A stretch of DNA of 64,000 nt from a virus (lineage: Duplodnaviria > Caudoviricetes), in the IMG/VR virus record IMGVR_UViG_3300009082_000959, one strand, 5' to 3'. Of the stretch, positions 12,628-47,332 are shown in pieces (the stretch's first letter is position 1; each line of letters begins with the position of its first letter). Below the pieces are notes generated by a model that did no database searches, was not told the DNA's origin, and saw only the letters and a list, made by a program, of their open reading frames with translations. A program made the translations under genes and the position numbers.

Positions 12628-14502
12628 ATGTCAGCAAACAAGTTATTTACAACGGCAGAACAATGGTTTGAAGACCTAAAAAAAGAAGTCTTAAAGATAG
12701 ACCCAGTGTCGTTTGCTGAAAACTATCTTGTCGTAGACGGAAAACCACTAAAACTTGGCGGCGGGACCGGCTGGAAATACCTTACTGATATTTACAGGTA
12801 CATGGCAACGAAAGCCATGGAAGAAGATGGGAAACCCGTAGTATGTGTTAAGGGTCGTCAGGTAGGCGCAACAACTGCCGCCACTGCACTTGAACTTTTT
12901 TTTTGCACCAGCGGGCTATACGGAACATCTCCAAATAAACCACCAATAAGACTTCTTCATTGTTTTCCTGCACTAGCTCTTGTGCAAAAATTCGCAAAAG
13001 ATAAATTAAGTACAATGATGAGAACATCAAAGGATAATTATATCCTTAATCATTCTCTTGGCTACGACGCTGAATCAAAGAAAAAGAGAATTGATGTTCC
13101 AGAAGATACTCTCACAGAAAAACAATTCACCAATGAAAATAGGCTTTGGGTTGATTCCAACGCCAATGATGCTCAAAGACTTCATGGTATGTCTTTGGAT
13201 GGTATTTTCTATGATGAGGTTCAGAGAATGAACCAAGATGACATAGGAAATAGCAAAAGAACCCTAACATCTGCTCGATATGGGCCCCGCGGACAAGGAA
13301 TCCAGATGTATTTTGGCACTCCTTTGCAGCGCGGTTCAAATTTTCACAAAATGTGGGAATCCTCTGACAAAAGATATTATCATCTTGGGTGTGAAAATTG
13401 TGGTCATTATTTTATGCTATATTCTCCTGGGAATGATGATTGGGAGAAAATATGGCTATATGCTAATGTTGTGGCTTGTCCAAAGTGTCACCACGAACAG
13501 GATAAAGTTGATGCAATAGAGCGCGGTAAATGGATTCCAATGCAACCAGTTCTGCCAGACGGAAAGGAACCACAGTATGTTGGATTTCATTTTAATCAAT
13601 TGCTGATACCAAATTTTCATAAAGAAACGGTCATTAAAGAAAAACCAGGAATACATCCAACAAACTCAGAGCGCATTTGGCAAAACGAAATATTAGGAGA
13701 GTTTTACAGTGGTGAAGATTTGCCAATGTCGGAAGAAGAAATATATAAGTATTGTAGAGATATAGACAGAAGCATTTCATTTGGAGGCCCAGGCACATCC
13801 ATAAAAAGAGTGCAAAGCAACAAGATTTATTCTTCGAGTAAAATTCCCACTTTTTTGGGCATCGACTGGGGTGGTAAAATAGACGATCCAAATTCCAAGA
13901 TAGGAAAATCGTTTTCTTGTATGGCAATTATATCTGTTGATAAGGATGCGGTAGTGAGAATAGAGAATGCATTTAAACTAAAAAAGAATGATTTGCAACA
14001 CAAAAAAGATGTAGTAAGGGAAATGTTCAGAAGATTTGATATCAATTGCGCTGTCGCAGACTTAGGTCATGGTAATGATATAGTTCCAGAGCTTCAGGGG
14101 GAATTTGGAAACAGGTTAATAGGAAGCATAAGCAGTGGTAGTCTAACTAATCCAACGAAATATGACCCAGAGGAACTAAGACTGATTATAAATCATCACG
14201 TATTACTGGAAGATTTATTCGCGCATATGAGAAAGGGTAAAGTATTATTTCCATGGAAAAGTTATGAGCAAATTCAGTGGCTTATAGAGCACTGCTGTTC
14301 AATGGAAAAAGAAATACACACAGTTCAGGGTCGAGTCATATCAAGATTTGTAAAGGGTACCGGACCCAACGACGGTCTTATGGCTCTCCTATATGCCTAT
14401 TTGGCGTATAAATTTTATCTAACGCAAGGGTTTACGATAAAGGCCCACCAACTAAATGCAAAAAGTGCCGGACCAATATTGGCTTATTTGCCAAGTTTTT
14501 AA
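12628..14502 (+). CDS. Terminase large subunit (lambda gpA-like)
   Basis: Walker A VCVKGRQVGATT, Walker B IFYDEV, coupling motif FGTP, CENC/CPKC zinc site, GFHFNQL, nuclease FLGIDWG. Confidence 0.9.
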   Translation: MSANKLFTTAEQWFEDLKKEVLKIDPVSFAENYLVVDGKPLKLGGGTGWKYLTDIYRYMATKAMEEDGKPVVCVKGRQVGATTAATALELFFCTSGLYGTSPNKPPIRLLHCFPALALVQKFAKDKLSTMMRTSKDNYILNHSLGYDAESKKKRIDVPEDTLTEKQFTNENRLWVDSNANDAQRLHGMSLDGIFYDEVQRMNQDDIGNSKRTLTSARYGPRGQGIQMYFGTPLQRGSNFHKMWESSDKRYYHLGCENCGHYFMLYSPGNDDWEKIWLYANVVACPKCHHEQDKVDAIERGKWIPMQPVLPDGKEPQYVGFHFNQLLIPNFHKETVIKEKPGIHPTNSERIWQNEILGEFYSGEDLPMSEEEIYKYCRDIDRSISFGGPGTSIKRVQSNKIYSSSKIPTFLGIDWGGKIDDPNSKIGKSFSCMAIISVDKDAVVRIENAFKLKKNDLQHKKDVVREMFRRFDINCAVADLGHGNDIVPELQGEFGNRLIGSISSGSLTNPTKYDPEELRLIINHHVLLEDLFAHMRKGKVLFPWKSYEQIQWLIEHCCSMEKEIHTVQGRVISRFVKGTGPNDGLMALLYAYLAYKFYLTQGFTIKAHQLNAKSAGPILAYLPSF

Positions 14503-15192: not shown

Positions 15193-18100
15193 ATGGAAAT
15201 ACGAAGAGGTCCATGGAAACCTGCTACAACCAATAAAGTAGCAACAGTAAAATCCAGTAGGTTCGGTGCGCGTCCAGCAACTGTTCTTAGTCCTGGTGTA
15301 TCAAATTCAGAGCACCATTTGGCTAATCGGCAGGCAGATACTGGCGCTATTCCCGAAAAAGTGTCAGAGTTTAGACAGGCAGAAATAATTAGAGCGACAG
15401 GATCCTCAAACAACCAAATCAAAGAGTCGCCTGCTCCATTATTATTATATAGTAATTCGTTCAAAAAATCTCAAGAAATAAAAGAAAATTTCCTGAGAAA
15501 AAGTGCCGCGTCTGTGACTTCTGGTGGATATAGTTCTGCTGGCGGCGGAACAACCATACAGGCACCAGAAATATATTCTCCACTATTTCAAATTGCAAAC
15601 CTACAGCTTCCGCGCGAAAGAATAACAATGAATGCGTGGAATAGAAATTTTTATGATACACATCCATTGGTTCACAACTGCATTAATTTGCACGCAACTT
15701 ATCCAATTAATAAAATAAACATTAAGTGCAAAGATGGCAAAATAGAACAATTTTTTAAGGATATGGCAGAGAACATAGACTTAATAGGTGTTTTGCAGGG
15801 AATGGCACTTGAGATTTTTAAGATTGGTGAGTGTTTCCCCTATGCCGAGTTGGATGAAAGAACTGGTGCTTGGAAAAGTATCGTAATTCAAAACCCAGAC
15901 TACATCCACATAAAAACATCTGTATTGGGAGGTGATCCAGTAATATCACTATCACCAGATGCGGCACTAAAACGATTGGTTCAAAGTAATAATCCAGCAG
16001 ACATACAATTAAGAAGCCAAATAGACGATGAAATTCTATATCACATTCGTAAGGGAAACAACATTCCTTTGGATAATTTTCACATAAGTCATTTGGCCCT
16101 TAAATCAGCTCCCTACGATGTGCATGGAACATCTCCAATAGTTACTGTCTACAAAGATCTTATGCTGTATGACAAACTTAGGGAGTGTTATTCTTCCGAT
16201 ACAGAAGTTTTGACTGATTCTGGTTTTATGAATGGTCTTGAATTGTCATTAAAGTATAAGAACAGTAATCAAAGCGATTTGCCATCTATTGCTTGTTTTA
16301 ATTCAGAAACAGAGATGGTTGAGCATCATAAACCAATAAAAACACATATATCAGAATATAATGGAAATATGTATAGGTTTAAGGGTAAAAAAGTAGATAT
16401 TCTCGTTACACCAGAGCATCGTATGTGGGTCAATAAGAACAAAAAGACTGGTTGGTCTGGATGGCATTTTGAACAAGCAAAGGATGTTAGCCCGTCCTAC
16501 TGGTACAAGTTTAGATGCCACGCAAAATACAATGAAGGCGAAAAGGTTGAATTTATTGATGTTCTTGGTAAAAAAATACCATCGGAACTTTACATGAAGG
16601 TTTTGGGACACATAATTTCGGAAGGATGTGTTTATCAAAGTTATAAAAACGGAAGATATGATAATAATGTTTCTATATGTCAAAATATAGAATCTAAATA
16701 TCAACAAAATATGAGAAATAATTTTAAGCAGTTTGCTGAATTATTGGGGAAAAATCTCGTAGAAAATACTAAGGTGGTTGGGTCTGGGTTTAGTGCACAT
16801 TCTCCAAAAAATAAGTGGGAAGCATTAGTGAGTGGTAAGGATTTAGTAAATTACTTCAAAAAAGAAATTGGAACAAATGATGTTTGTAATTCCGGAACCA
16901 AAAGAATTCCTAGGTGGATATTTGGACTACATTCTGATTTGTTAAAGTGTTTGTTGGAATCATTAATGGAGGGCGACGGGCATTTTTCAAGTAGTTTGTA
17001 TAATACAACATCAAAAGGCTTTCGTTATGACACTGGCTCAAAACAACTAGCAGATGATGTATATGAGTTAGTCTATCGCCTTGGATTTGTTCCGTTATTG
17101 CGAACAGTAGATAGGACTGGAGAAAATACTGGGAAAAATTTATTAGAATACTCTGTCTCTTGGTCAAACACACATTATGGCCGTGAGCCGCGTGTGTATG
17201 GAAAATCAGATTCAAAGCATCACGGTGCCCATATTGGTCAAACAGATTATGATGGTTTAGTTTGGTGCTTCGAAGTTCCTACTGGATTATTTATAACACG
17301 CAGAAATGGCAAAATAACTATTCAGGGAAACTCTAAATATGCACAGGCTGATAGCCTTGTAAATCCAATTACACTAATAAAAGTTGGTGGGGCTGGAGAA
17401 GGAGAATACAAAGCAACCGGTGATGACTTGGAGAAATGGCGTCAAATAATGGAGTGTCATGATGAAGAGACCGAGGTATTGACTGACCACGGTTTTAAGA
17501 AGTTTTTTGATGCAATTGATTACACAAGGAGCGATGATGTTGCTGTTTACACTGCATCACCAAAGACTGGAATAAAAATAGCTTGTTTTAATAATGATAC
17601 AAAACAACTTGAGTATCATATTCCATCCAGAGCTACTTTATATGATTATTCTGGAGAAATGTATCATTTCAGTGGCGGAAAATTAGATATCAAAGTTACA
17701 CCCAATCACAGAATGCTTGTTACAAGAAAACTAAAGAAAGGTTGGTCTAATAGTGAGATAATTACTGCTGAAAACCTTTCACTGGGGACACACTATAGGT
17801 TTAGGTCAGTCGCAAAATTCAACGGTGAAGAAAAAGAATCAATTAATGTTTGTGGGAAAAGTATAAAAACTGATGATTATTTGGAATTTTTGGGAAATGT
17901 TATAAGTGAGGGATATGTTTGTAAGATAAATGACAAGTATTATAATAGCATAACATTATATCAAGAAAATTGTTCTCCAGAAAAAAATAGTATGGAAACC
18001 AATTTAGAAAAAATAGCAAATTGTTTTGGGAAAACCATACAATCAAAAACAATTGATAATAGCCATACTCCATTTTCCGGCACAAATACAAGCACGATGT

Positions 18101-19422
18101 GGCGAGGAATTCTGTGCTCATCTGTTTTAACCAAACATTTGTTTGAAGAAATAGGTGAAAACGGAAAATGTAATTCGCACAACAAACGCATTCCAAGGTG
18201 GATTTATTCTCTATCTACACGACAAATGAAAATACTTATTAATTCTCTTGTCGCAGGAGATGGAACAAAATACACAAGTAAAACTGGTAAGAGTGGATTT
18301 AAATATAGTACAATATCTGAAAATTTGGCAAAAGACCTACATGAATTAGTGTTTTTGGCCGGGTTTGCTCCAAAAGTATATAAAACAAAGAATGGTCAAG
18401 GAAAAGACTATTGGCTTGTTACCTGGACTGAGAGTGGCAAGGGATCATTCCCGCATTTCGGTGGAGTATCAAATAAAAGAGAACAACAACTCACTAAAGA
18501 GCAATATAATGGTAAGGTTTGGTGCTTTACTGTTCCAACAGGATTATTTGTCACCAGACGAAACGGTTTAATTACAATTCAGGGTAATAGCGCTGAGTAT
18601 GATAAAAACTTTAAGATAATTACTCATGCAGGCGTTACGGTTGAAAGAGTTGGTGCTAATGGATCAATATTAGATATAAACCCAGACATGCAGGCTATTT
18701 TAGATAATATTTTGTACGGTCTTATGGTTCCAAAAGCGGTAGTGACACAGGAAGGTTCGTCTTTCAACAGCGCAACTGTTGGTCTAGAAGTTCTTAGGCA
18801 GCGCTACGAGGCTTTTAGGAACATGATGTCGCAGTGGCTCATTAAAAAGATATTTGCTCCAATCAGCGAAATACAAGAATTTTATGAGTATAAAGATGGG
18901 GATAAAAAACTTATTGTCCCAGACATTGAGTGGAATAGAATGATATTGTTTGATATGGATAACTATATCAGTGTATTAAACGGATTGGTCAAAGAAAAAG
19001 CAGTATCCAAGACTACACTTTTTAGAAGCCTTGGTCTAAACATCGATGAAGAGAATAGACTTCGTAAGGAAGAACTAATAAAAGAAGCTATAATAGGAAA
19101 AGAAACAGCTATTCTAAATTCAATGACTCTTGGTGCCTTGCGCTCACTAAAGGCAGAGGACGATATAATAGAACCAACAGACCAGGTTTCTCTACCTGGG
19201 ACACCTGGTTCAGAGGAATCAGGAATACCTGGAATGACTCCTCCTGGCGCCGGCGGATTAGGCGGTGGGGGTCTTGGTGGCTCTCCAATGCCTCCAATGG
19301 GCGGACTTGGCGGCGGCCTAGGTGAGCTTCCAACAGAGGGCCTTGGCGGCCCTGAAGCTCCTGCGGGCGGTGGAGAAACACCTCAAAGCCCAACGCCAGC
19401 ACCTACATCACCAACACAATAA
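15193..19422 (+). CDS. Portal protein precursor containing two inteins (spliced product ~649 aa)
   Basis: Follows TerL; exteins FYDTHPLVHNCINLHATYPI, GECFPY, PYDVHGTSPI resemble phage portal; Gly/Pro-rich C-tail; 1409-382-378=649 aa. Confidence 0.8.
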   Translation: MEIRRGPWKPATTNKVATVKSSRFGARPATVLSPGVSNSEHHLANRQADTGAIPEKVSEFRQAEIIRATGSSNNQIKESPAPLLLYSNSFKKSQEIKENFLRKSAASVTSGGYSSAGGGTTIQAPEIYSPLFQIANLQLPRERITMNAWNRNFYDTHPLVHNCINLHATYPINKINIKCKDGKIEQFFKDMAENIDLIGVLQGMALEIFKIGECFPYAELDERTGAWKSIVIQNPDYIHIKTSVLGGDPVISLSPDAALKRLVQSNNPADIQLRSQIDDEILYHIRKGNNIPLDNFHISHLALKSAPYDVHGTSPIVTVYKDLMLYDKLRECYSSDTEVLTDSGFMNGLELSLKYKNSNQSDLPSIACFNSETEMVEHHKPIKTHISEYNGNMYRFKGKKVDILVTPEHRMWVNKNKKTGWSGWHFEQAKDVSPSYWYKFRCHAKYNEGEKVEFIDVLGKKIPSELYMKVLGHIISEGCVYQSYKNGRYDNNVSICQNIESKYQQNMRNNFKQFAELLGKNLVENTKVVGSGFSAHSPKNKWEALVSGKDLVNYFKKEIGTNDVCNSGTKRIPRWIFGLHSDLLKCLLESLMEGDGHFSSSLYNTTSKGFRYDTGSKQLADDVYELVYRLGFVPLLRTVDRTGENTGKNLLEYSVSWSNTHYGREPRVYGKSDSKHHGAHIGQTDYDGLVWCFEVPTGLFITRRNGKITIQGNSKYAQADSLVNPITLIKVGGAGEGEYKATGDDLEKWRQIMECHDEETEVLTDHGFKKFFDAIDYTRSDDVAVYTASPKTGIKIACFNNDTKQLEYHIPSRATLYDYSGEMYHFSGGKLDIKVTPNHRMLVTRKLKKGWSNSEIITAENLSLGTHYRFRSVAKFNGEEKESINVCGKSIKTDDYLEFLGNVISEGYVCKINDKYYNSITLYQENCSPEKNSMETNLEKIANCFGKTIQSKTIDNSHTPFSGTNTSTMWRGILCSSVLTKHLFEEIGENGKCNSHNKRIPRWIYSLSTRQMKILINSLVAGDGTKYTSKTGKSGFKYSTISENLAKDLHELVFLAGFAPKVYKTKNGQGKDYWLVTWTESGKGSFPHFGGVSNKREQQLTKEQYNGKVWCFTVPTGLFVTRRNGLITIQGNSAEYDKNFKIITHAGVTVERVGANGSILDINPDMQAILDNILYGLMVPKAVVTQEGSSFNSATVGLEVLRQRYEAFRNMMSQWLIKKIFAPISEIQEFYEYKDGDKKLIVPDIEWNRMILFDMDNYISVLNGLVKEKAVSKTTLFRSLGLNIDEENRLRKEELIKEAIIGKETAILNSMTLGALRSLKAEDDIIEPTDQVSLPGTPGSEESGIPGMTPPGAGGLGGGGLGGSPMPPMGGLGGGLGELPTEGLGGPEAPAGGGETPQSPTPAPTSPTQ
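16186..17331 (+). mobile_element. Intein 1 in portal (382 aa, LAGLIDADG)
   Basis: Starts CYSSDTEVLT, block B LVTPEHRM, endonuclease helices LGHIISEG/LMEGDG, ends ITIQGN followed by Ser. Confidence 0.92.
17455..18588 (+). mobile_element. Intein 2 in portal (378 aa, LAGLIDADG)
   Basis: Starts CHDEETEVLT, block B VTPNHRM, LGNVISEG/LVAGDG, ends ITIQGN followed by Ser. Confidence 0.92.
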
Positions 19423-20466: not shown

Positions 20467-23400
20467 ATGCTATTCAATAATTTTAAAATTTTATCAAAAC
20501 GCGCCAAAGTTGTCAGTGATAAACCTGCATACAAAGACAAACAAGAAAGTGACAGCGGGAACACAATTTATCACTATGACGAAAAACATTTATCAAAACG
20601 CTGGCAACACAAGCGAGATAAGGTAAAAAATCTCGAAAAAAATGTAAAGAAAATACGAGAACAATATGAGAAGGATTTAAGTTCAGATGATCCCAGAACA
20701 CGCGCTATTGCTGCTGTTGTTGGTGTTATAGATGATACGGCCGCGCGCGTTGGAAATCCTGACTCTATTAAAGATCATGACACATATGGTATAACTACGC
20801 TAAAACTAAAGCACATTTCGTTTAGCGGCGGCAAAGCAAAACTAAAATTCCCAGGAAAAGACAATGTTAATCAAGACCTTACTGTTGATAATAAGAAAGT
20901 CATTAAGGTCTTAAAAGAACTTACCAAAGACAAGAAAAAAGATGATTTCCTTTTTGAGGTTGATGGGAAAAGAATTTGGGACCGTGCTATCAATAGATAT
21001 TTGTCTCCCTTTAAGATTAGTGCAAAGGATTTGCGCGGTTTCCATGCCAATCGTTTAATGAAAGAGTTACTGAAGAAAAAAGACTTTGACGAGGCTTTAG
21101 AGGAAACGGCCTCCATTGTGGGTCATGAAAAAGCAACGCTCAAAAATCAATACCTTTTACCCGAATTAGTCGAAAAATACGAAGGCAAAAAGAAAGATGC
21201 TAGCATAATGCGTTTATCAAAACGCGCTGAACTCACACCAGAAGACTTGGCTTGGGTTAATAGCATTAAGGGTTTGACTGCTGATGTTCCTTCTGCGCCA
21301 GCAACACAAACAGGTGGCGTAAAAATAAACAGTTTAATACTAGCTGCTTGGCAAACTTTATTACCATTTTTGCCAAAGGGTTCTGTGATTACTTCCGGAG
21401 AAAGAACGGCAGATGATCAAAAACGAATCCTGGAACACTATTGGCAAAAAGCAACTGGCCAAAAAATACCAGATAAACTTAAAGCCAATGATAGCGTATG
21501 GTTCCAAGTATCTAAGTCTCTTAAAGAGGACTATGGTTATATAGTTGGACCTCCGAAAACAAATGATCCTTATTCTCACTTGAACGGAAGAGCACTTGAT
21601 GTTTCTGGTGCAAACTTAAATCAAATTGCCAATATAGCGGCTTCTGTATCAAACAACCCAAAATTACCAGTAAAATTTAGAAAACCAGTAATAGAGAAGC
21701 AAAACAATTGTGTTCATCTGGGAATAGAGAACGCAGAATATAATCCTGCGGCAATTAAAGAAGTATTAAGTAGCGGATTGGGAGTTACTGCATCTATATC
21801 TGTGCGTGCAAATAAATTTTTGGATGAAATGGGTTTTGGTCTTGAAACAGAACAGGGTGATTTATTTGAGAAATCACCAATATTCAGGCATTATGATGGC
21901 TACCAAACATACAAAATTCATGATATTAGCGAAACAGAAGCTAGCAAATTAGCAAAGAGTGAACCAGACGAATTCTTTTATCGCGGACTACACAAAGAAT
22001 ACGCTAATCTTGTTCCTGGTGCTTTACGTAGCATGATACAATCGAATGCAAAATTTTTCTTTGTATTTGATTATCACAAAGATGAAAAATATTCAGACTT
22101 GTTAATTTTGGCCGCCGAACTATTATCTCAACAGGACCCTAGGGCATTTTTCTATTTCGGCCTACATAAAAAGTTTCCAGAATTAGGCAGAGGTGCTGTT
22201 GTTCAGTTGATTGATACCAATCCGGACTCATTTTTCGATCTTGGTCTGGAAAAAGAATACAGCGATTTAGAGGGAAGTGCTGGTGCTGCCAGAAACATAA
22301 AAGACCCAAATAAAATTGAAATAGAAAAAGATTCTAATTTGAATAAAGCAGCAGAGGAAGACGACGAAGAAAAAAAGAAATTAGAGGAATATTTGAAACT
22401 TCGAGAAAAATATAAGCGATTATTTAAAGACAGAGACTATAAAGAGTTTCCACCAGAGGACCGCAAAAAGGAATTTTGGAAGCATCAATTTAATCCAAAG
22501 GAAATTGGTAGTTTTCCTAGTTTCTGGGAATATCCAAAAGAAGAAGACCCGGATCGTGAGGAAAAAGAAGAAGACCTTAAAAAAAGACGCAAACAGTACT
22601 GGCAGCACCAATTAAGTCCCACCCGGTGGCTTGGCTATGGCGCTATTCCTTTTTGGAAATATCCGAAGAGTTCTGTGATGCCAGTGCTATCAAAACGCGC
22701 AGAAGTCAATGACGTTGCTGGCGTATTTGCAGTATTGCCAAAAGAAATAGCAAAACAATTTAAGTCTCTTGGTGACCACGACAACAGTGATCCACACATA
22801 ACTGTGATTTTTTGCGGTAAAGTAAAAAAGAAAGATAGAAAGTTGCTGGAAGAAACTGTCAGAGGAGTAATAGAAAACTGGAAGCCCTTTAAAGCAGAAT
22901 TAGATAGCAAGGTCACTTATTTTCCTGCAACCAAAAATTCAGATGGCTGTAAAATAGCTAAAATGAGTGTGAAATCCAAAGAACTTCACAGACTGCACAA
23001 AGAATTAAAAGAAGCGATTGAAAGCGCCGGAATAGAAATCGATGATACATTTCCTGATTACAAACCACACGTGACATTGGAATATTTAGAAAAAGGTGCA
23101 ACAAAATACGAAGACGAAGTTCCGGAAGGCTCTTGGGAAATAGATTGTGTAGAAATTTGGGGAATTGGTAAAAATAGAAAAATTAAATTTGACAAGCACG
23201 AGAAGAAAGCGTGTCTATCAAAACGGGCATCATTCACAGAAGAAGAGGCGAAGGAACTGGCCGAAAAAGGTTCTGATACTTTTTTTTACTATCACCTACA
23301 GGAAACCTACCCACATCTCGCAGAACAGGCGGCGCGTAATCTAGCAAAAGTATCAGCATTTGATTTTTTTTATTACAGACTACACGAAACATACCCACAT

Positions 23401-26400
23401 CTTATAGAATACACAGTACAAAAGTTGGTAGAAGAGAATCCCAAAATGTTCTTTTTTCGTGGTTTTCACAAAACATATCCACATCTTACAGAACAAGCCG
23501 CCAAAAACCTAGTAGAAGAGGATTCTGGATATTTCTTTAGTTATGGACTACAGGAAACATTTCCACATCTTACAGAACAAGCCGCCAAAAGCCTAGCAGA
23601 AAAGGATCCTGATACTTTGTTTTTTAGGAAACTAGATAAAATTTATCCACAATTAGGTGAGTTGGCAGCCAAAAACCTAGCAGAAAATAAACCTGCCGAT
23701 TTCTTTTACTTCAAGCTGCATAAAACCTACCCACAAATAGGAGAACAGGTGGCCAAATACCTGGCAGAAAATAATATTAGTACATTCTTTCATTACAATT
23801 TACAAGAAATCTACCCAAAACAGGGCGAGCTACTATCAAAAAATCTAGCAGAAAAGGATCCTGATACTTTCTTTCGCAGGGAATTACACAAAATTTATCC
23901 GCAACTAGGTGAATTGGCAGCAAAGAGTACGGCAGAAGAGGATCCAAAAAAGTTCTTTCTTTTTGGATTACACAAAACCTATACACACTTTGCAGAATTG
24001 GCAGCAAAAGGCATTGCGGAAATCATTCCTGGTTATTTCTTTGATACTGAATTACATAAAATATACCCACAGTTATCAGAACAGGCTGCCGAAAATTTGG
24101 CGAAAGAAAATATTGTGTCCTTCTTTTATCGCAAAATACACGAAACCTATCCACATATCGCAGAACAAGCTGCCAAAAACCTAGCAGAAAATGATGAGGG
24201 AGAATTCTTTAAATTAAATTTGCAAAAAACTTATCCACAGTTTGCGGAACAACCAATAACAAATAGATTAAAAGCACAGAAACAATTTGATTACGAAAAT
24301 CCCGATCACAGAAATAGACCTCTTAAAGCAAAACAATTAGCCAGTAAAATGTATAATCAGGGATATAAAACCTACATACACACTAATGATTTAGATGATT
24401 TGGATGGAATCGGCAGTATTCCTGGGGAAATTTGTGTAAGTTCTTGGGACTTATCCAGAAAACTGTTTTCCTCAAGCCCAATGACTTACGCTGCAATTTT
24501 TGAGGGAAGACCTTCACATTTCTTTAATCAAGATGCTTGGTCTGACGTAGGTCAGGATGGCCTACGATTTTTGACAAGTATTGGGAGAGATAGGGACTTT
24601 TACGAAATGGATGAAAACCATGACGAAGCTTGGTTTAATCCACTAGCACCAGGAAACAAATTAGTTGGCTTTGCTTTAGTGGGAATACCGAAAGATCAAG
24701 AAACATATCAAGATGGAAAGAAAAAACTACAAAAACTGGCGGAGAAAAACGGAGTAGCGTATTTGGAGTTTGGAGAAAATCCTTGGGACTTGAAAAAAAT
24801 CAGAGAAAAACCTTTAATGAAAGAATATGAAAAACCAAACCCAATGATCAGCAAATATAAAAATCTACCAGAAATGAGAGACTACGCTAAACTGAAACTA
24901 TCAAAACGTGCCGAAGAGGAAACAACAATACAACTTACCGACAAAGAAAAACAAATCTTTGATGTTTTGCTTGAAACAATAAAGCATTTTAATTTAAAAT
25001 CCACCATTAGAGTTGCCGGCGGTTGGGCTAGAGATAAAATACTTGGGAAAAATAGTAAAGACATAGATATAGCAATTGATAATATGTCTGGTAAGCAGTT
25101 TGCCGAAAAAGTATTGCTATTTGCTCGCACGAAAAACATTCCAGTAAAATCAGTTGGAGTAATAGAGGCCAGACCAGAACAATCAAAACATCTCGAAACA
25201 GCTGTGGTTAATTTACTAGGCGAGAGTATAGACTTTGTAAATTTGCGCGCAGAAAAATATGATCCAGAAACCAGAATTCCAACGGCAGTTCCTGGAACTG
25301 CTCTTGAGGACTCATATCGTAGAGACTTGACCATTAATAGTTTATTTTACAATATTAATACTGGGAAAATAGAAGATTTGACCGGCAAAGGTATAGATGA
25401 TTTAAAAAATAAAATAATAAGAACGCCAGTTCCGCCGAAGGAAATTTGGTCACAGGTTGGAATTACAGACGAATCACAAGCAATTACTCCAAAGAAAACC
25501 TTTATGGATGACCCACTTCGTGTTCTTCGTGCAATTAGGTTTGCCTCAAGATACGGATTTTCTTTGGCACCAGAATTAATGGAAGCAGCAAAGGACCCCG
25601 AAGTTCAGGAATCATTTAAAAACAAAATATCTAGAGAGCGCATCGAGGCAGAATTAAGAAAAATGATAACTGGTCCAAATCCTGTTTGGGCTCTAAATTT
25701 AATAAACGAGTTGGGTTTTAGGTCTGAAGTATTAAAACTCCCAGAACAAACAAACTGGAAAACCGGTGATGAAGATATTTGGGGAAACATAATTCAAACA
25801 CTGGATAATTTACAAAGTATAATAAAAGAAAGAAATTTGGGTGAAGCAGACAAGTTCGTTATTAATTTTGCGGCATTCTTGCATGATGTTGGCCTACTTG
25901 ATCCAAAAAACCAAGACGCGAAAAAATTGGAGAAATCCATTGGACGATCTGAATCCAGCGTCGTAGTCGCAGAACATGTATTACGAAATTTGCCAGGCGT
26001 AAGGGTTGATGAAATAGAAAGAGTAAAGAAACTAATAGATGCCACCAAACTAATAGAAAACCAAAAACACGATTTGTCTGCTATTACACGAAAACAATTG
26101 GGTAATTTTGTTAGAGCAATAGGAGACGATTGGGAAAATGCAGTTGATATTTTGGCTGCACGAAACAAGGCCAACGAAGGATTTAGTCCAGAGTATTACA
26201 GTGGAATTAAAAAACAGGTAAAGGATTTTGGTCTTGAAAAAGCCCACACAATGAAACCGCTTTTGACTGGCGAAGAATTAATGAAATTGTTTGAAAGAAA
26301 GGGCGGAAAGTGGATGGGAGACCTAAATAGAGAACTAATTCAATGGCAGTTAGAAAATCCAAACGCAACGAAGGATGATGCAATTGTCGCAGCAAAAGAC

Positions 26401-28275
26401 ATTTATGGTAAGTTTGGGTTAGATAAAAAATCATCTCTTGGCCGTTTGTCTAAATTGGCTAGTGCTGGTTTTTCAGATAAAGATGTAATTGATTTATACA
26501 AATTTATGTATTTGCGAAACCAATTAGAAAGAAGAGGAGACCCGGAAAGCGATAGTTATATTGAGTATTTAGATGAAACTATGAATGATAAACTAAAGCA
26601 TATTTTTTATGTCCTGTCGACGGTATTTGAAAAATGGCTAAAAAGACATCGAGCTATGTTTGGTGATTTAAATAATCTAGAGAATTTTGAAACCGCCGTT
26701 GCATGGTATGTTGGTAATTTAATGGATCATGTGCATGAAAAAGACATCAACAAGGCGGAGCAATACTTACCACAGTCTCGTGATGAGGTTTTAAAGTGGA
26801 AAAATACATTTAATACAATACACGAAATATACGAAAATCTTGCAAAAGGTCCATCCAGAGACATGAATAGTAATTTCTCTATAATAAGTCGCGCAATTGG
26901 GGCATCACATATCCATGGTGATATGTTGTCGTATATTAAAGAAACAGTCGATGATCCAAACCAACAAATTACGCCAGAATTAATGTCTCAATTGACTTCT
27001 GGAAAACACGAAGATTTTAAAGAGTGGAACAAAGAACTGCGAAGAATTGGTTGTAAAAAATTACACTTATCGAAGAGAGCGTCTGTTTCTGAAGAAGAAG
27101 CAAAAGACCTAGCAGAAAAAGATCCAGATAGTTTCTTTATAGACAAACTACACAAAATATACCCCAAACTTGGTGGGTTAGCTGCAAAGAATTTAGCAGA
27201 AAAAGATCCTAATAAATTCTTTTCTAGATCACTACATATAACCTACCCACATCTTGAGGAATTAGCAGCCAAAAACCTATCAGAAAATGATCATTATAGT
27301 TTTTTTTATAATGGATTACACGAAATTTATCCGCAACTAGGTGAGCAAGCTGCCAAAAACCTAGCAGAAAATGATTTTCATGAGTTCCTTGCTTTTGGGT
27401 TACACAAAATCTATCCCCAAACCGCAGTTCAAGCAGCAAAAAATCTGTCAGAAAAAGATCCAGAAAATTTCTTTTATTTCGAACTACAGCAAATCTATCC
27501 ACAATTCGGGGCCCTGGCGGCCAAAAAGATAGCAGAAGATGATGCAGAGAAATTCTTTAAATTAAATTTGCAAAAAACTTACCCACAGTTTTCAGAACAA
27601 CTCATAAAAAACAGACTAAAAGCACAGAAACAATTTGACGAGGAAAATCCAAATCGCAAAAATAGGCCACTTAAAGCAAAGCAATTGGCTAATGAAATGT
27701 ATAATCATGGATATAAAACCTACATACACACTAATCACCTAGAAGATTTAGACGGAATTGGTAGTATTCCTGGGGAAATTTGTGTAAGTTCTTGGGATTT
27801 GTCTCGTAAGCTTTTTTCTGCAAACCCAATGACTTATGCTGCTATTTTTGAGGGGAAGCCTTCACACTTTTTTAATCAAGATGTTTATTCTAATATAGGC
27901 AAAGATGGCTTGCGGGTTTTGACAGACACCATGCGTGATGACACCTCTATTTACGAAATGGATGAAAACCATGACGAAGCTTGGTTTAATCCACTTACTC
28001 CGGGAAACAAACTGGTTGGTTTTGCTTTAGTGGGAATACCAAAAGACGAAAAAGAATACCAAGAAGCCAAGAAACAGCTACAAAAACTAGCGGAGAAAAA
28101 TGGAGTATCTTTCCTAGAATTTGGTGAAAGTCCCTGGGACTTGAAAAAAATCAGAGAAAAACCTTTGATGAAAGAATATGAAAAACCAAACCCAATGATC
28201 AGCAAATATAAAAATCTACCAGAAATGAGAGACTACGCTAAACTGAAACTATCAAAACGAACCAACATTGGTTGA
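20467..28275 (+). CDS. 2602-aa multi-enzyme protein (probable polyprotein) segmented by LSKRA motifs
   Basis: One uninterrupted ORF; six exact LSKRA plus ISVRA, LNKAA, LSKLA and LSKRT fall at domain boundaries. Confidence 0.9.
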   Translation: MLFNNFKILSKRAKVVSDKPAYKDKQESDSGNTIYHYDEKHLSKRWQHKRDKVKNLEKNVKKIREQYEKDLSSDDPRTRAIAAVVGVIDDTAARVGNPDSIKDHDTYGITTLKLKHISFSGGKAKLKFPGKDNVNQDLTVDNKKVIKVLKELTKDKKKDDFLFEVDGKRIWDRAINRYLSPFKISAKDLRGFHANRLMKELLKKKDFDEALEETASIVGHEKATLKNQYLLPELVEKYEGKKKDASIMRLSKRAELTPEDLAWVNSIKGLTADVPSAPATQTGGVKINSLILAAWQTLLPFLPKGSVITSGERTADDQKRILEHYWQKATGQKIPDKLKANDSVWFQVSKSLKEDYGYIVGPPKTNDPYSHLNGRALDVSGANLNQIANIAASVSNNPKLPVKFRKPVIEKQNNCVHLGIENAEYNPAAIKEVLSSGLGVTASISVRANKFLDEMGFGLETEQGDLFEKSPIFRHYDGYQTYKIHDISETEASKLAKSEPDEFFYRGLHKEYANLVPGALRSMIQSNAKFFFVFDYHKDEKYSDLLILAAELLSQQDPRAFFYFGLHKKFPELGRGAVVQLIDTNPDSFFDLGLEKEYSDLEGSAGAARNIKDPNKIEIEKDSNLNKAAEEDDEEKKKLEEYLKLREKYKRLFKDRDYKEFPPEDRKKEFWKHQFNPKEIGSFPSFWEYPKEEDPDREEKEEDLKKRRKQYWQHQLSPTRWLGYGAIPFWKYPKSSVMPVLSKRAEVNDVAGVFAVLPKEIAKQFKSLGDHDNSDPHITVIFCGKVKKKDRKLLEETVRGVIENWKPFKAELDSKVTYFPATKNSDGCKIAKMSVKSKELHRLHKELKEAIESAGIEIDDTFPDYKPHVTLEYLEKGATKYEDEVPEGSWEIDCVEIWGIGKNRKIKFDKHEKKACLSKRASFTEEEAKELAEKGSDTFFYYHLQETYPHLAEQAARNLAKVSAFDFFYYRLHETYPHLIEYTVQKLVEENPKMFFFRGFHKTYPHLTEQAAKNLVEEDSGYFFSYGLQETFPHLTEQAAKSLAEKDPDTLFFRKLDKIYPQLGELAAKNLAENKPADFFYFKLHKTYPQIGEQVAKYLAENNISTFFHYNLQEIYPKQGELLSKNLAEKDPDTFFRRELHKIYPQLGELAAKSTAEEDPKKFFLFGLHKTYTHFAELAAKGIAEIIPGYFFDTELHKIYPQLSEQAAENLAKENIVSFFYRKIHETYPHIAEQAAKNLAENDEGEFFKLNLQKTYPQFAEQPITNRLKAQKQFDYENPDHRNRPLKAKQLASKMYNQGYKTYIHTNDLDDLDGIGSIPGEICVSSWDLSRKLFSSSPMTYAAIFEGRPSHFFNQDAWSDVGQDGLRFLTSIGRDRDFYEMDENHDEAWFNPLAPGNKLVGFALVGIPKDQETYQDGKKKLQKLAEKNGVAYLEFGENPWDLKKIREKPLMKEYEKPNPMISKYKNLPEMRDYAKLKLSKRAEEETTIQLTDKEKQIFDVLLETIKHFNLKSTIRVAGGWARDKILGKNSKDIDIAIDNMSGKQFAEKVLLFARTKNIPVKSVGVIEARPEQSKHLETAVVNLLGESIDFVNLRAEKYDPETRIPTAVPGTALEDSYRRDLTINSLFYNINTGKIEDLTGKGIDDLKNKIIRTPVPPKEIWSQVGITDESQAITPKKTFMDDPLRVLRAIRFASRYGFSLAPELMEAAKDPEVQESFKNKISRERIEAELRKMITGPNPVWALNLINELGFRSEVLKLPEQTNWKTGDEDIWGNIIQTLDNLQSIIKERNLGEADKFVINFAAFLHDVGLLDPKNQDAKKLEKSIGRSESSVVVAEHVLRNLPGVRVDEIERVKKLIDATKLIENQKHDLSAITRKQLGNFVRAIGDDWENAVDILAARNKANEGFSPEYYSGIKKQVKDFGLEKAHTMKPLLTGEELMKLFERKGGKWMGDLNRELIQWQLENPNATKDDAIVAAKDIYGKFGLDKKSSLGRLSKLASAGFSDKDVIDLYKFMYLRNQLERRGDPESDSYIEYLDETMNDKLKHIFYVLSTVFEKWLKRHRAMFGDLNNLENFETAVAWYVGNLMDHVHEKDINKAEQYLPQSRDEVLKWKNTFNTIHEIYENLAKGPSRDMNSNFSIISRAIGASHIHGDMLSYIKETVDDPNQQITPELMSQLTSGKHEDFKEWNKELRRIGCKKLHLSKRASVSEEEAKDLAEKDPDSFFIDKLHKIYPKLGGLAAKNLAEKDPNKFFSRSLHITYPHLEELAAKNLSENDHYSFFYNGLHEIYPQLGEQAAKNLAENDFHEFLAFGLHKIYPQTAVQAAKNLSEKDPENFFYFELQQIYPQFGALAAKKIAEDDAEKFFKLNLQKTYPQFSEQLIKNRLKAQKQFDEENPNRKNRPLKAKQLANEMYNHGYKTYIHTNHLEDLDGIGSIPGEICVSSWDLSRKLFSANPMTYAAIFEGKPSHFFNQDVYSNIGKDGLRVLTDTMRDDTSIYEMDENHDEAWFNPLTPGNKLVGFALVGIPKDEKEYQEAKKQLQKLAEKNGVSFLEFGESPWDLKKIREKPLMKEYEKPNPMISKYKNLPEMRDYAKLKLSKRTNIG
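20506..21213 (+). other. Polyprotein module: DNA topoisomerase IB catalytic domain
   Basis: ARVGN, TYGITTL, FPGK, AKDLR, VGH, NQYL: the R-K-R-H-Y catalytic set is present. Confidence 0.9.
21229..21795 (+). other. Polyprotein module: peptidase M15-type Zn peptidoglycan hydrolase
   Basis: ITSGERTADDQ, YSHLNGRALDV (SxHxxGxAxD) and CVHLG supply the H/D/H ligands. Confidence 0.75.
22702..23214 (+). other. Polyprotein module: 2H phosphoesterase (2'-5' RNA ligase/LigT-like)
   Basis: Two HxT motifs: DPHITV and YKPHVTL. Confidence 0.88.
23257..24264 (+). repeat. 12 tandem 84-nt (28-aa) repeats, consensus LAEKDPDxFFxxxLHKxYPQLGEQAAKN
   Basis: Counted directly in the translation; 12x84=1008 nt ends exactly at ...PITN. 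Confidence 0.9.
24265..24897 (+). other. Polyprotein module: unknown enzyme-like domain, copy A (possibly ADP-ribosyltransferase fold)
   Basis: YIHT...EICVSSW...NHDEAWF spacing resembles the ART H/R-S-E triad; fold call is weak. Confidence 0.35.
24913..26445 (+). other. cca: Polyprotein module: CCA-adding tRNA nucleotidyltransferase with HD-like segment
   Basis: RVAGGWARDKILG, KDIDIA, DFVNLRAEKY, EDSYRRDLTIN, DDPLRVLRAIRFA, KISRERI, FLHDVG. Confidence 0.92.
27109..27612 (+). repeat. 6 tandem 84-nt (28-aa) repeats of the same family as 23257..24264
   Basis: Counted in the translation; 6x84=504 nt. Confidence 0.9.
27613..28248 (+). other. Polyprotein module: unknown enzyme-like domain, copy B (duplicate of 24265..24897)
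   Basis: High amino-acid and nucleotide identity to copy A; the last ~125 nt differ at one position by my reading. Confidence 0.8.
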
Positions 28276-28319
28276 AATATACTAATAAAATCACATTTAT
28301 CAGTAGAAGGAGAGAGTTT

Positions 28320-29000
28320 ATGAAAAAAATCGCATCTGGCGCCGAGATTATGAGCACCATACTATCTTTTACTGAAGCACTCGAAGAAATGTATGAGCAT
28401 ATGCATTGGAGGGCTTCTGGACCAAATTACTACGGTGATCATCTTTTGTATCAGAGACTGTATGAAGACATAGAGGGCGAAATAGATGGAATAGCTGAAA
28501 AGGCAGTTGGTGTTTTTGGGCCAGATTCGATAGGCCCAAACAAAAATATTTCAGAAACAGCCAAAATAACTGAAAAACTTATTTCTGATACTGATACAGC
28601 AGAAAAATTTCCAGAGATAGCAATATCCGCAGAGGAAAAGTTTGTTGAATTGGTTTCTCGCGCGCTTAAAGAAATGGATAAAAGCAACGAATTAACCAAT
28701 GGCATAGATAATATGCTACAGGGTGTGGTAGATAGCCACGAAGGTCACTTGTATTTATTAAAGCAAAGGGCTAATAAAAAGGAATCAAGCACAGTCATAA
28801 GACTGTTTAAGTTGGCATACTATTTGGATAGAAAGTCCTTATACAACGAAGCACGAGAAATAGAAGAAGTTATGCTACAATTGGCAAAACGAGTGGGCAT
28901 AAATCAAGAAGAAATGGTATCACTGGCTGATGAATTGGATCAAATTGGGGATACTGTCGTAGCGGATAAAATAGATAATATGATTAAATCAAATAAATAA
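28320..29000 (+). CDS. Ferritin/Dps-like domain protein with two C-terminal hairpin tags
   Basis: AGGAG SD then MKKIAS; HMHWRASGPNYYGDHLLYQRLYE...IDGIAEK is a Dps-like signature; tags LFKLAYYLD.. and VSLADELDQIG.. Confidence 0.75.
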   Translation: MKKIASGAEIMSTILSFTEALEEMYEHMHWRASGPNYYGDHLLYQRLYEDIEGEIDGIAEKAVGVFGPDSIGPNKNISETAKITEKLISDTDTAEKFPEIAISAEEKFVELVSRALKEMDKSNELTNGIDNMLQGVVDSHEGHLYLLKQRANKKESSTVIRLFKLAYYLDRKSLYNEAREIEEVMLQLAKRVGINQEEMVSLADELDQIGDTVVADKIDNMIKSNK

Positions 29001-29001
29001 T

Positions 29002-29376
29002 ATGCGTCCTCTATCAATTCGGCACAAAATAGCAACAATTGAAGCCTCCAAGTCTGGTGTCGGCGTAAGTGCTGGTGCGAGAAAATATATGAGAACCGCT
29101 ATGCCCGAATATAAGAGCGTTGGAAATGCTGAACTAAACGAGCTAATCGTGTTTGAGTTTTCAAAGTGCGCGCCGTGGAGCAGATTCAAACTAAATAAAA
29201 CACTAGATGGAATAGCCGAAATAAGAAAAAGTTCGAGGTTTGTATTCGTCGCTAGAATAAGAGATAGAGGGACATCGCAGTCTGGGTATGATATTATAAC
29301 GATACAACCAAACTCTAAAGAGGTTTCAGAAAAAATTAGAAAACTACGCCTACAGCCCGGTTGGGGCTTTGAATAA
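29002..29376 (+). CDS. Hypothetical basic protein
   Basis: Starts MRPLSIRHKIA (motif variant). Confidence 0.65.
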   Translation: MRPLSIRHKIATIEASKSGVGVSAGARKYMRTAMPEYKSVGNAELNELIVFEFSKCAPWSRFKLNKTLDGIAEIRKSSRFVFVARIRDRGTSQSGYDIITIQPNSKEVSEKIRKLRLQPGWGFE

Positions 29377-29387
29377 CGGAGAACAAT

Positions 29388-30685: not shown

Positions 30686-30699
30686 TAGGAGAGAGAACC

Positions 30700-31515: not shown

Positions 31516-31527
31516 AAGAGGACTAAA

Positions 31528-32737: not shown

Positions 32738-32753
32738 GCCAAAAAACCATAAA

Positions 32754-32767: not shown

Positions 32768-32825
32768 TGAAATATATTGTACGGACCGGCCTATCTGGGC
32801 CTTATCTTATTTGTAGGAAATATAA

Positions 32826-45526: not shown

Positions 45527-47332
45527 ATGCAAAAAATTTCTTGGACCTGGCGAGATATAGTTACGGAGCTTGGAGTTGGGGCCGTCACTGACCTGGCAAT
45601 TGCTGGCGGTGCCGCAGCTCTTGGTCTTGGCACTGGTCCAATAGGATGGACTCTATTGGCTGGAGCAGGAATTACAGCGGCAGTTTGGTATTTTACGCGC
45701 CAAATGGACGACAACTTACCAGACCTCATAGATAGACTTGAAGACCTTGATCCAAAACCAGAGTATGAACTCAAAATAAATAATTGGATTGACACACTAA
45801 AATCAATACTGCCCACAATTTCTGCTCCACCAACCACTACTGATGTTGCACAAAGAGGACAACTCAATGCTCAACAGTATGTTGCTATGAGAAATTTGCT
45901 TGCTTATATGGAGCAATTAGAGAAAGAGTGGAGAACAGATGTATATCCAAATGGACTTACGGATATCGTTTTTGATGCAGGTCAGGTAAATTATACTATA
46001 TCTGAAACCCTAAATGCTATAAAGACTTCTATCACAAAAATGCGTGAAGCTGCAAAACAAGATGCTGACACACTATTGAACCAAATTAAAGAAAAATCAA
46101 AGATTGATTACAAGCAATTATCCACAGATATAGTTGGTTTATATGACCAATTGACCAGTTTATATGGAAAGGCACCAGAGTGGGAAACAAATGAAAGAAA
46201 TTTGGAGGCAGCTTTTAATTTTGCAAAAAATATAGTTGGCCGAGGCGAGGAATTCAAAGCATTCACACAGCAGGATTTGACTGCTATGTTGCCCCTGATG
46301 AATAAAGTTAAGGAATTGTTTTCTCGTGCCCTACAAGCAAAACAACCTGCTCAAAAAACATCATCTCACCAGGCTTTATCTAAACGGGCACTTATATTGG
46401 GTGATGGTAGTCGTATTTCAGACACAGAATCTCCAATTCCACATGGCCAGTTAAGGCAGGCACCACTTACCTCAAAATCTCCAACTGTGGCAAAATTACA
46501 AATGGCGCTTAATGTAATAAACGAAAAGATTGGCAGTCCAACAAAATGCATAGTTGATGGGCTGTATGGAAAACAAACAGCCGGCGCAGTTGTTGAGTTA
46601 ATGGGAAAAAGCAAAGCAGTTGCAGATATGGTTGCACCTCTTGATGCAGAACAAATATCTAATGTCTCCGCCATGAATCAAAATCCAGGCAATATAAAAG
46701 ATTTGTTTGACGCGTTTTATTCAATTGCCCTACAATTAAAAGAGAGCGGCGGTAAAGGCACAGAGCAACCAGCAGCACAGTGTAATCCAGAAAAATTCAA
46801 TCCAACTCCGGCAGAAATGTTGGCTTGTTTAAAGGAAGAATTGCAAGTAGAGGAACCAAATACTGGTAAAAGAATGTATGCCTATGATTGGATGAGAAGT
46901 CTTGGTGTAAGTGATTCCACAATGATTTCTTGGGTCACGAGTTTATTTCCGCCAAGTGATTATAGACCAAAGGACTGGTCTCCTTCGGTTTTGGTATCTC
47001 ACGTAAAATCAGAGTTTGCTAGGGCTCAAAAAAACAAAAACCCAACACAATTGGGAAATATATCAATACCAAAGGATGATAATAGCCTAATAAGATATAT
47101 GAAAAATTATTTTGAAGTAATAGACCCACCAACCAATGAAAAAATGGGAGTATATTTCTGGCTACAAGGAAAAGGATTGGATAAATACATATCATTAAAA
47201 ATGATGAATGATTTCATAAACAAACAACAAGGTGGCCAGAGAATTTGGAACACAGCAACAACTCCAAGACAATTCACCTCTTTTGTTGAATCACTTATGG
47301 GAGGCCGAGAAGGTGCAGCACGTATTATCTAA
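45527..47332 (+). CDS. Probable internal virion/ejection protein with glycine-rich hydrophobic N-terminus and PG-binding-like motif
   Basis: LGVGAVTDLAIAGGAAALGLGTGPIGWTLLAGAG; LSKRA at 46376; LQMALN...IVDGLYGKQT. Confidence 0.7.
   Translation: MQKISWTWRDIVTELGVGAVTDLAIAGGAAALGLGTGPIGWTLLAGAGITAAVWYFTRQMDDNLPDLIDRLEDLDPKPEYELKINNWIDTLKSILPTISAPPTTTDVAQRGQLNAQQYVAMRNLLAYMEQLEKEWRTDVYPNGLTDIVFDAGQVNYTISETLNAIKTSITKMREAAKQDADTLLNQIKEKSKIDYKQLSTDIVGLYDQLTSLYGKAPEWETNERNLEAAFNFAKNIVGRGEEFKAFTQQDLTAMLPLMNKVKELFSRALQAKQPAQKTSSHQALSKRALILGDGSRISDTESPIPHGQLRQAPLTSKSPTVAKLQMALNVINEKIGSPTKCIVDGLYGKQTAGAVVELMGKSKAVADMVAPLDAEQISNVSAMNQNPGNIKDLFDAFYSIALQLKESGGKGTEQPAAQCNPEKFNPTPAEMLACLKEELQVEEPNTGKRMYAYDWMRSLGVSDSTMISWVTSLFPPSDYRPKDWSPSVLVSHVKSEFARAQKNKNPTQLGNISIPKDDNSLIRYMKNYFEVIDPPTNEKMGVYFWLQGKGLDKYISLKMMNDFINKQQGGQRIWNTATTPRQFTSFVESLMGGREGAARII

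Follow-up and report, generated by a model that had tools for sequence, protein, structure and literature searches.

Why should a phage join several unrelated enzymes in one polypeptide and set the same five residues between them? The question is raised by a 64,000-nucleotide stretch of viral DNA (IMG/VR record IMGVR_UViG_3300009082_000959; Duplodnaviria, Caudoviricetes), hereafter the window, in which one uninterrupted open reading frame (ORF) of 2602 codons (20467..28275, plus strand) encodes a 2602-amino acid (aa) protein, P0001, with the pentapeptide LSKRA recurring between its domains. That P0001 is a modular polyprotein with a boundary code, encoded within a head-morphogenesis block, is well supported by sequence comparison. 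The reading favoured here, to which we assign a probability of about 0.55, is that it represents a polyvalent head-cargo polyprotein of a huge phage related to Bacillus phage G and that the motif serves as a lineage-specific processing signal.

The pentapeptide and the modules of P0001

Exact LSKRA is found six times in P0001, at aa 9-13 (20491..20505; all sites and modules of the polyprotein are on the plus strand), 250-254 (21214..21228), 741-745 (22687..22701), 917-921 (23215..23229), 1478-1482 (24898..24912) and 2201-2205 (27067..27081), against an average expectation of 0.0035 copies in shuffled versions of the protein. The first copy follows an 8-residue leader. To these are added the variants ISVRA (aa 444-448; 21796..21810), LNKAA (aa 625-629; 22339..22353), LSKLA (aa 1994-1998; 26446..26460) and, at the C-terminus, LSKRT (aa 2595; 28249..28263), behind which the stop lies three residues downstream. 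The original prediction, made from the letters of the window, had listed every one of these positions exactly. In homologs, the junction corresponding to ISVRA reads ISKRA, ISVRA or ISKLA, the position of the degenerate LNKAA is occupied by [LI]S[LVI]RD[KR]NA, and ISKLA recurs at junctions of P0003, P0004, P0005 and P0007. Almost all of the 15-nt stretches encoding LSKRA show synonymous differences (TTA/CTA, TCA/TCG, AAA/AAG, CGC/CGG/CGT/AGA and GCC/GCT/GCA/GCG are all used), indicating that the constraint is on the peptide and not on the DNA.

The segments between the sites are of very different kinds. The first (aa 14-249; 20506..21213) is a topoisomerase IB (Topo IB) module, matching PF01028 at aa 47-240 with 106 bits (cutoff 23.7) and, by Foldseek, the folds of variola and bacterial TopIB (E 4e-9); its catalytic pentad R94, K131, R190, H220 and Y229, aligned to variola TopIB, is invariant in 13 sequences. 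The active-site stretch of the variola enzyme (PDB 2h7f) reads ISKRAY, the same as the junction pentapeptide, which is probably a coincidence; the phage Topo IB has TLKNQY at the same place (aa 220-229 region). The next module (aa 255-443; 21229..21795), described in the original prediction as an M15 peptidase, contains a folded domain at 283-436 with the motifs SHLNGRALD and CVH. That assignment is weakly supported: the module gives weak VanY/VanXY (VanXYc) fold matches (E 0.04-0.13, prob 0.85-0.99) and no Pfam match between aa 240 and 460, and a paralogous module in P0003 matches Pfam VanY weakly (E 0.0017, under the cutoff). It is followed by Hel (aa 449-624; 21811..22338), a helical module of near-invariant sequence with an all-helical fold at 482-612, and by a Trp-rich duplicated segment recognized by sequence (aa 630-740; 22354..22686), which has partial matches in P0003 and P0009.

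The second half of the chain begins with a 2H phosphoesterase module (aa 746-916; 22702..23214), which matches PF13563 (45.6 bits, cutoff 27) and PF02834 (28.8 bits) over a Pfam span of aa 769-879, retains both H-x-T motifs (PHITV and PHVTL) and shows a weak match to Acb1. Behind it, twelve helical repeats with a period of exactly 28 residues lead into a domain of about 167 aa, domain X (together aa 922-1477; 23230..24897), and near the C-terminus six repeats of exactly the same period are followed by a second copy of the same domain (aa 2206-2594; 27082..28248). Domain X has no family match in Pfam, and in a Protein Atlas search it gave low-score leads alone (DarT and OspC-type clusters, 0.81-0.85). 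Between the two arrays lie a CCA-adding enzyme/poly(A) polymerase-family module (aa 1483-1993; 24913..26445) and a module termed U1 (aa 1999-2200; 26461..27066), which is common to P0010 and P0011 and has no Pfam match. The CCA module matches PF01743 with 88.3 bits (cutoff 23), the Pfam span, RNA-binding extension included, being 1515-1975, has weak matches to PF12627 and PF13735, and carries GGWARD...DIDIA; by its sequence it is a class II nucleotidyltransferase with a PolyA_pol head, which would add either CCA or poly(A). A stand-alone PolyA_pol-head gene (8241-9008), 29% identical to the first half of this cassette, is located upstream of the terminase gene, an arrangement also seen in two related contigs (L001 and L005).

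The order of domains is as originally described, with Topo IB, 2H and CCA modules identified by Pfam and the twelve repeats preceding the six, each with domain X. The count of about nine enzymes was overstated, since four segments (Topo IB, VanY-like peptidase, 2H and CCA) are recognizable enzymes and the others are repeats or unassigned domains. All of the Pfam domains fall between motifs. An AlphaFold model of aa 1-640, built from 13 collinear sequences, contains three confident domains, and its predicted local distance difference test (pLDDT) score drops below 50 in exactly four segments (1-37, 240-282, 437-481 and 613-640), which hold one motif each, namely LSKRA at aa 9, LSKRA at aa 250, ISVRA and LNKAA.

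Motif placement and reshuffled cassettes across the family

A search of 5.8 billion proteins yielded 15 clear homologs (1613-3753 aa, from metagenomic contigs of up to 468 kb), which together with P0001 form a family of 16 proteins. In each of the 15 homologs, [LI]S-x-R-[AD] or ISKLA occurs 4-17 times. At least 27 module types could be mapped on the 16 proteins, of which Topo IB and one VanY-like module are universal, the helical module is found in 15 and a second VanY-like module in 14. Accessory cassettes include the CCA enzyme (11/16), 2H (10/16), a LigD-type PrimPol (7/16), a LigD 3'-phosphoesterase (6/16), a module with the HExxH signature of zincins (5/16), an ATP ligase (1/16) and many unassigned types. 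The order of modules is different in each of the 16 proteins; the CCA enzyme stands first in P0004, for example, and Topo IB is internal in six proteins. Despite this reshuffling, a motif precedes Topo IB in 14 of the 16, so that a comparison of orthologs, proposed with the original prediction, reveals variable cassettes joined by conserved linkers. Single-linkage clustering of the motif-cut segments collapsed into one cluster, since some boundaries are without a recognizable motif. No cultured-phage relative of the polyprotein was detected by megablast and tblastn of the gene in INPHARED (50,697 phage records), the domain X and M15b+Hel modules likewise had no match there, and Bacillus phage G has no such polyprotein.

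The position of the motif with respect to these modules speaks for a boundary code. Exact [LI]SKRA occurs 80 times in the 16 proteins, and none of these copies reaches deeper than 10 residues into a homology block, even though 76.6% of all residues belong to block interiors (binomial P ~4e-51). This zero count is independent of how the module seeds were cut. Conversely, 79 of 110 module starts are found within 5 residues downstream of a motif, a figure that is partly built in for the seed proteins, as the map is seed-based and its seeds were cut at motifs. Pfam envelopes, homology blocks of the 16 proteins and AlphaFold linkers agree with the claim that the motif stands between domains and never inside one. 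The flanks of the pentapeptide show no further conservation, being Lys/Ser-rich upstream and mixed or acidic downstream.

The fifth position of the motif distinguishes internal from terminal copies. Among 145 loosely matched internal sites it is occupied by Ala in 91 and by Asp in 21 (in the 80 exact sites it is Ala by definition). A motif within the first 30 residues ([LI]S.R[AG] or ISKLA), in the pattern M-x(1-25)-motif, is present in 14 of the 16 polyproteins. In nine polyproteins the first copy begins at residues 3-5, and there the fifth position is never Ala; eight of the nine have a second, full copy 7-9 residues behind it. Seven polyproteins end with [LI]S-x-R-x, 0-9 residues from the stop, and none of these seven copies has Ala at position 5. 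Such a contrast fits recognition of [LI]S-x-R with Ala or Asp needed for a cut, which would then be licensed where a neighbouring module needs to be released. The sequence is compatible with a scissile bond at either R|A or A|x. Position 4 also varies at some polyprotein junctions (ISKLA, ISKHA, ISKFA and ISKCA), and copies of the LSKKA type may, by this token, represent further sites.

The motif extends beyond the polyprotein to other members of the head block. A six-frame translation of the window contains nine [LI]SKRA, all in coding frames, of which six belong to P0001 and three, all LSKRA, to the ORFs beginning at 43298, 45527 and 47232, where 0.03 are expected (P(>=3) = 4e-6). In the first of these proteins, P0022 (43298..45508, plus strand), the motif is at aa 254 (nt 44057-44071); an LSKKA is also found at aa 382 (nt 44441). 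In P0023, a predicted membrane-anchored protein (45527..47332, plus strand) whose N-terminal segment is hydrophobic and whose C-terminal part looks, by eye, like a peptidoglycan-binding domain, it is at aa 284 (nt 46376-46390) and is invariant as [LI]SKRA in all seven orthologs covering the site, while the linker around it varies in sequence and length. The hydrophobic protein P0024 (47232..47963, plus strand; LSKRA at nt 47325-47339) probably starts at the GTG at 47310, which would give the N-terminus MQHVLSKRA. A 124-aa protein (29002..29376, plus strand) begins MRPLSIRH and its 122-aa ortholog in L001 begins MHISKLA; a stand-alone NUDIX gene in the same block of L001 starts MYISKRA. The ATP-ligase cassette of P0014 has motifs on both sides, whereas stand-alone ATP ligases encoded beyond the cargo block, upstream of the terminase gene in L001 and L002, and 67-70% identical to that cassette, have none. 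Judged from these sequences, the motif tracks membership of the head cargo block and not any enzyme family.

Three more distant polyproteins (P0017; P0018, L004:10001-22732; and P0019, L005:10001-18502; 1472-4243 aa) share only Topo IB with P0001. At least two are encoded in head modules, with a protease 33-37% and a capsid protein 36-38% identical to those described here. LSKRA is missing from them, and each repeats a boundary motif of its own ([DE][DE]W-x-[KR]LA[GA], eight copies; an ARVAARW-like motif, five; an LDLIKKLA-like motif, four), one copy of which directly precedes Topo IB. Strict patterns for the P0018 and P0019 motifs were not found in neighbouring genes. These proteins also contain several HExxH modules, an RNA ligase, an InPase and a CCA head. 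Lineage-specific boundary motifs are the pattern that would be expected if the code co-evolves with a lineage-specific reader.

Proposed processing of head cargo and competing readings

Chains of this general kind have been described. Polyvalent proteins of phages and conjugative elements combine many unrelated domains in one protein, are predicted to be delivered with the DNA and proteolytically processed, and include 2H, DD-peptidase and assemblin-like peptidase domains (Iyer, Burroughs, Anand, de Souza and Aravind, 2017; PMC5512222), and the original claim that such a polyprotein would be unusual for a phage therefore needs qualifying. P0001 resembles them in its unrelated catalytic domains, late/virion gene setting, mosaic architecture, 2H module and putative VanY-like fold. 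It differs in having a strict pentapeptide at every boundary and in lacking an embedded metallopeptidase (MPTase) or assemblin-like peptidase, the processing agent proposed in that work, which is frequent but not obligatory in polyvalent proteins. The cargo of its family (Topo IB, CCA enzyme and LigD-type phosphoesterase, PrimPol and ligase) and its phage G-related lineage also differ from the published set: in the searched text of PMC5512222 no linker code is mentioned (‘linker’ does not occur, and the three matches to ‘cleavage’ concern RNA and a cited title), topoisomerase appears in the reference list only and CCA nowhere. Nor was an LSKRA-type linker code, a Topo IB, CCA or LigD-type cargo, or a polyprotein of this lineage found in the literature on jumbo/huge phages and phage G. 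The kind of polyprotein is already known, both from polyvalent proteins and from Alt and the internal proteins of T4; the strict pentapeptide code and the cargo set are new.

In T4, gp21 cleaves the capsid-targeting leaders off Alt and the internal proteins, and in giant phages, SPN3US for example, many ejection proteins undergo processing (PMC5694885, PMC10052503). P0001 is like T4 IPI-III and Alt in its short N-terminal leader ending in the motif and in the presence of a gp21-fold protease in the head module, and what holds for T4 cargo, that it consists of packaged and injected head enzymes, is proposed here for the pieces of P0001. The differences are that T4 cargo is encoded by separate small genes and here by one 2602-aa chain, and that the T4 motif, L/I-x-E, is also present in scaffold and capsid. 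In phiKZ, 201phi2-1 and SPN3US many capsid proteins, inner-body and ejection proteins among them, are trimmed by the prohead protease at a short motif before DNA packaging (PMC5694885, PMC10052503); those sites are of the type (S/A/G)-x-E and the precursors lose propeptides, unlike P0001, which would be split into unrelated enzymes. Polyproteins of eukaryotic RNA viruses, where a repeated specific site frees unrelated enzymes, offer an analogy only. Herpesvirus assemblin-fold proteases cut after Ala; their substrates are not homologous to P0001, and Ala as the P1 residue here is an assumption. Phage P1 DdrB and N4 vRNAP are likewise very large head-packaged proteins acting on entry (PMC5512222), but have a single function or few domains and no repeated boundary motif, and N4 vRNAP is packaged uncut.

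What we infer for P0001 is cleavage, with its enzyme and scissile bond, and the packaging and injection of the resulting pieces. A chain of independently folding modules would be made late as one polypeptide, with [LI]-S-K-R-A acting as processing signal at every module boundary and at the N-terminus and tolerating any residue at position 3, L at position 4 and D at position 5. A phage protease would cut at the motif and turn the modules into separate proteins within the capsid, able to leave it together with the DNA. Once delivered, they could act in DNA relaxation or repair, mend tRNA 3' ends, break down 2',3'-cyclic or cyclic-nucleotide species and breach the peptidoglycan. Three or more other head-block proteins would carry the same signal. 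On balance, we consider it somewhat more likely than not that capsid cargo is processed proteolytically at this motif.

The obvious candidate for the cutting enzyme, by head-block context and by analogy with T4 and phiKZ-like phages, is the gp21-fold protease of the protease-scaffold fusion P0020 (35710..39399, plus strand; 1229 aa, probable true start the ATG at 35725). It matches phrog_18299 (head maturation protease), with the protease at about aa 30-260, and is 32% identical to phage G gp19. A model of the protease domain from 74 sequences (AlphaFold, pLDDT 85) has T4 gp21 (5JBL) as its best PDB fold match (prob 0.98) and weaker matches to herpesvirus assemblins, and H142 and S193 are invariant in the 74 sequences. 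The T4 gp21/assemblin-type fold proposed at this locus is supported; the parallel with T4 and phiKZ fails in that the motif is missing from scaffold and capsid. We regard this protease as the most likely cutter, with chances somewhat below even.

Several observations weigh against processing of P0001, and against processing by such an enzyme in particular. T4 and phiKZ-type proteases use one motif on scaffold, capsid and cargo alike. Here, P0020 and two orthologs contain no LSKRA-type motif, 150 cluster representatives of the protease-scaffold (175,141 residues) contain one exact and four loose motifs, and no LSKRA-type site was detected in the capsid protein across 121 orthologs. [LI]SKRA, moreover, does not resemble the L/I-x-E rule followed by T4 gp21, the protease closest in structure, and a strict five-residue motif is, to our knowledge, more specific than known prohead-protease sites. 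The zincin module of five family members provides an alternative candidate processing enzyme, and N4 vRNAP shows that very large cargo may be packaged uncut (discussed in PMC5512222). A complex prediction of the protease domain with junction residues 232-275 scored 0.01 and is evidence in neither direction. The sole scaffold/capsid feature sharing a skeleton with the junction motif is F-[VI]-K-[YAV]-A in the scaffold part, with 79 copies in 58 of 136 proteins (2.9 expected). It has the same hydrophobic-x-K-x-A skeleton but sits in a longer conserved pattern, and can be regarded as a lead and no more. The scaffold part also has a duplicated, strongly conserved element, RRAYWLGGGG-I/V-NEPTPG-x-PKYEK; these elements of P0020 (the duplicated one and F-[VI]-K-x-A) were noted at aa 455-575 and about 595-612.

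The shortage of motifs in the usual prohead-protease substrates leaves room for a reading in which the pentapeptide is never cut and serves as a docking or linker signature, binding the scaffold core, the portal or DNA and so bringing the chain into the capsid, where the protein would remain one giant multifunctional polypeptide like N4 vRNAP. The copies at the extreme termini, where a cut would remove only 2-9 residues, and the stand-alone proteins that start with the motif suit this view, and the K-R core, being basic, might attach to nucleic acid or to an acidic surface. A docking tag gives no reason, however, for placement at every boundary and never in a module interior, or for Ala/Asp at internal copies only, and tethered enzymes acting on different substrates or sites (peptidoglycan, DNA and tRNA) would be hard to use, as argued in PMC5512222. 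In addition, a different tag, helical L-x-K-L-A-N-x-L-D, is found on other small head-block proteins and resembles a loading signal. We consider an uncut chain unlikely. The same absence from scaffold and capsid proteins would be explained if the motif is a cleavage site read by a zincin-type metallopeptidase, embedded or encoded elsewhere, and not by the prohead protease, in line with the processing-peptidase model published for polyvalent proteins (PMC5512222). Five proteins (P0002, P0006, P0013, P0014 and P0016) contain as a cassette a module of about 530 aa with HEL[VIT]H[ML]MQ; P0014 has two full copies and one partial, U6 of P0011 also has HExxH, and the module begins right behind a motif, its conserved start A-G-x-x-D-Y-P-K-K-M hinting that a free N-terminus may be important. 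Yet 11 of the 16 family proteins are without it, neither P0001 nor any plus-strand ORF of at least 90 aa in the window contains HExxH, tblastn of the module against the 64-kb window gave no match, and, as it has no Pfam match, its identity as a peptidase is putative. We consider a zincin as the cutter unlikely.

Cleavage after the dibasic Lys-Arg pair, for instance during or after ejection through the envelope, by a host protease or by a secreted chymotrypsin-fold protease of the phage, has some appeal in that the K-R pair resembles dibasic sites in general. The same genome encodes a 234-aa Trypsin_2 serine protease about 22.5 kb past the end of the window (L008:19464-20168), whose N-terminal signal peptide ends in a lipobox-like FCSC, and hydrophobic segments of membrane type are found in two of the other proteins with the motif, P0023 and P0024. 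However, the accepted variants ISIRA, ISVRA, ISLRD and ISKLA lack the dibasic pair, the Trypsin_2 protease has Ala/Ser six residues before its catalytic Ser instead of the Asp expected for Arg specificity, and a secreted enzyme would be absent from the cytoplasm, the site of head assembly and of Topo IB and CCA enzyme action; the chance that this is the answer is very small. That the signal resides in the DNA, promoting cassette exchange by recombination or marking an internal start, with the peptide as by-product, might be suggested by reshuffled cassettes with breakpoints at the motif. It is contradicted by the synonymous variation described above, by the coding frame of all nine [LI]SKRA among six frames and by the lack of start codons behind the motifs, and was rejected.

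Processing of head cargo, the reading preferred here, can be extended to a two-part code of address and cut, which we put forward as speculative and on present evidence doubtful. In this scheme [LI]-S-K-R would dock the protein onto the protease-scaffold core and position 5, when Ala or Asp, would permit a cut, internal copies releasing modules and terminal non-Ala copies staying as anchors; exchangeable cassettes would be loaded and delivered with the genome across the phage G-like lineage, and sister lineages would use other codes with diverged proteases. The cassettes (Topo IB, LigD-type phosphoesterase, PrimPol, ligase, CCA enzyme, 2H and NUDIX) would then constitute a ready-made kit for the repair of DNA and RNA and for counter-defence. 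If the motif is a processing code, a sequence rule would reveal the capsid cargo of an abundant uncultured huge-phage lineage, pre-made nucleic-acid and tRNA-repair enzymes would enter the cell and provide counter-defence before phage gene expression, and a compact portable tag would be available for loading foreign proteins into phage capsids and releasing them. The processing of polyvalent proteins would also become directly testable with the protease domain and a short reporter.

The head block

The polyprotein gene is situated between the portal and protease-scaffold genes, in the order terminase, portal, HNH gene, polyprotein, about ten small proteins, protease-scaffold, several unassigned proteins and capsid protein. 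The succession terminase-portal-polyprotein-small proteins-protease-scaffold is kept in L001 and L002, so that the claimed location in a head-morphogenesis block holds, packaging itself being a further step of the proposal. The large terminase (12628..14502, plus strand) matches phrog_675 (E 1e-57). The portal gene (15193..19422, plus strand; 1409 aa) matches phrog_16240 (E 9e-43) and, through intein/LAGLIDADG insertions, PF14528. Its orthologs are 670 aa long in L001 and 1413 aa in L002, a difference suggesting that, within the lineage, some phages have a portal gene interrupted by one or more inteins.

The major capsid protein, P0025 (51990..53015, plus strand; phrog_2522, E 8e-77), is 52% identical to phage G gp27, and Bacillus phage G is the nearest cultured relative. 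At E <= 1e-40 its relatives number 1784, the longest of their contigs being 452 kb, and identity among the 120 best-scoring orthologs is 78-93%; one relative is labelled as a protein of a Patescibacteria metagenome-assembled genome, probably a binning error. About 41 extra N-terminal residues in comparison with phage G gp27 had suggested a propeptide site, L-x-x-R, which was ruled out because Arg42 is not conserved while the entire N-terminus is. The ORF at 39632-40927, at first a candidate, is not the capsid gene; it had no match in the 50,697 phage records.

The helical tag, in full L-x-K-L-A-N-x-L-D-x-x-G...A-x-x-I-D, is found at the N- or C-terminus of many small head-block proteins encoded in the regions 28272-34216, 40938-41420 and 47960-48541 (for example the ORFs at 29388, 30700, 31528, 32387 and 33599) and is absent from the polyprotein; from its distribution it may be a separate capsid-loading signal. 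Further along the genome, which is represented by a 223-kb contig of an NCBI assembly, the Trypsin_2 gene is preceded by one for a 338-aa protein with an N-terminal hydrophobic segment (L008:18419-19435). The structural block is also interspersed with homing-endonuclease-like genes of the HNH or endonuclease VII type, five recognized by PHROG match and two by sequence (748-1788, 10761-11999, 19432-20187, 34220-35062, 35064-35732, 42139-42870 and 53245-54777).

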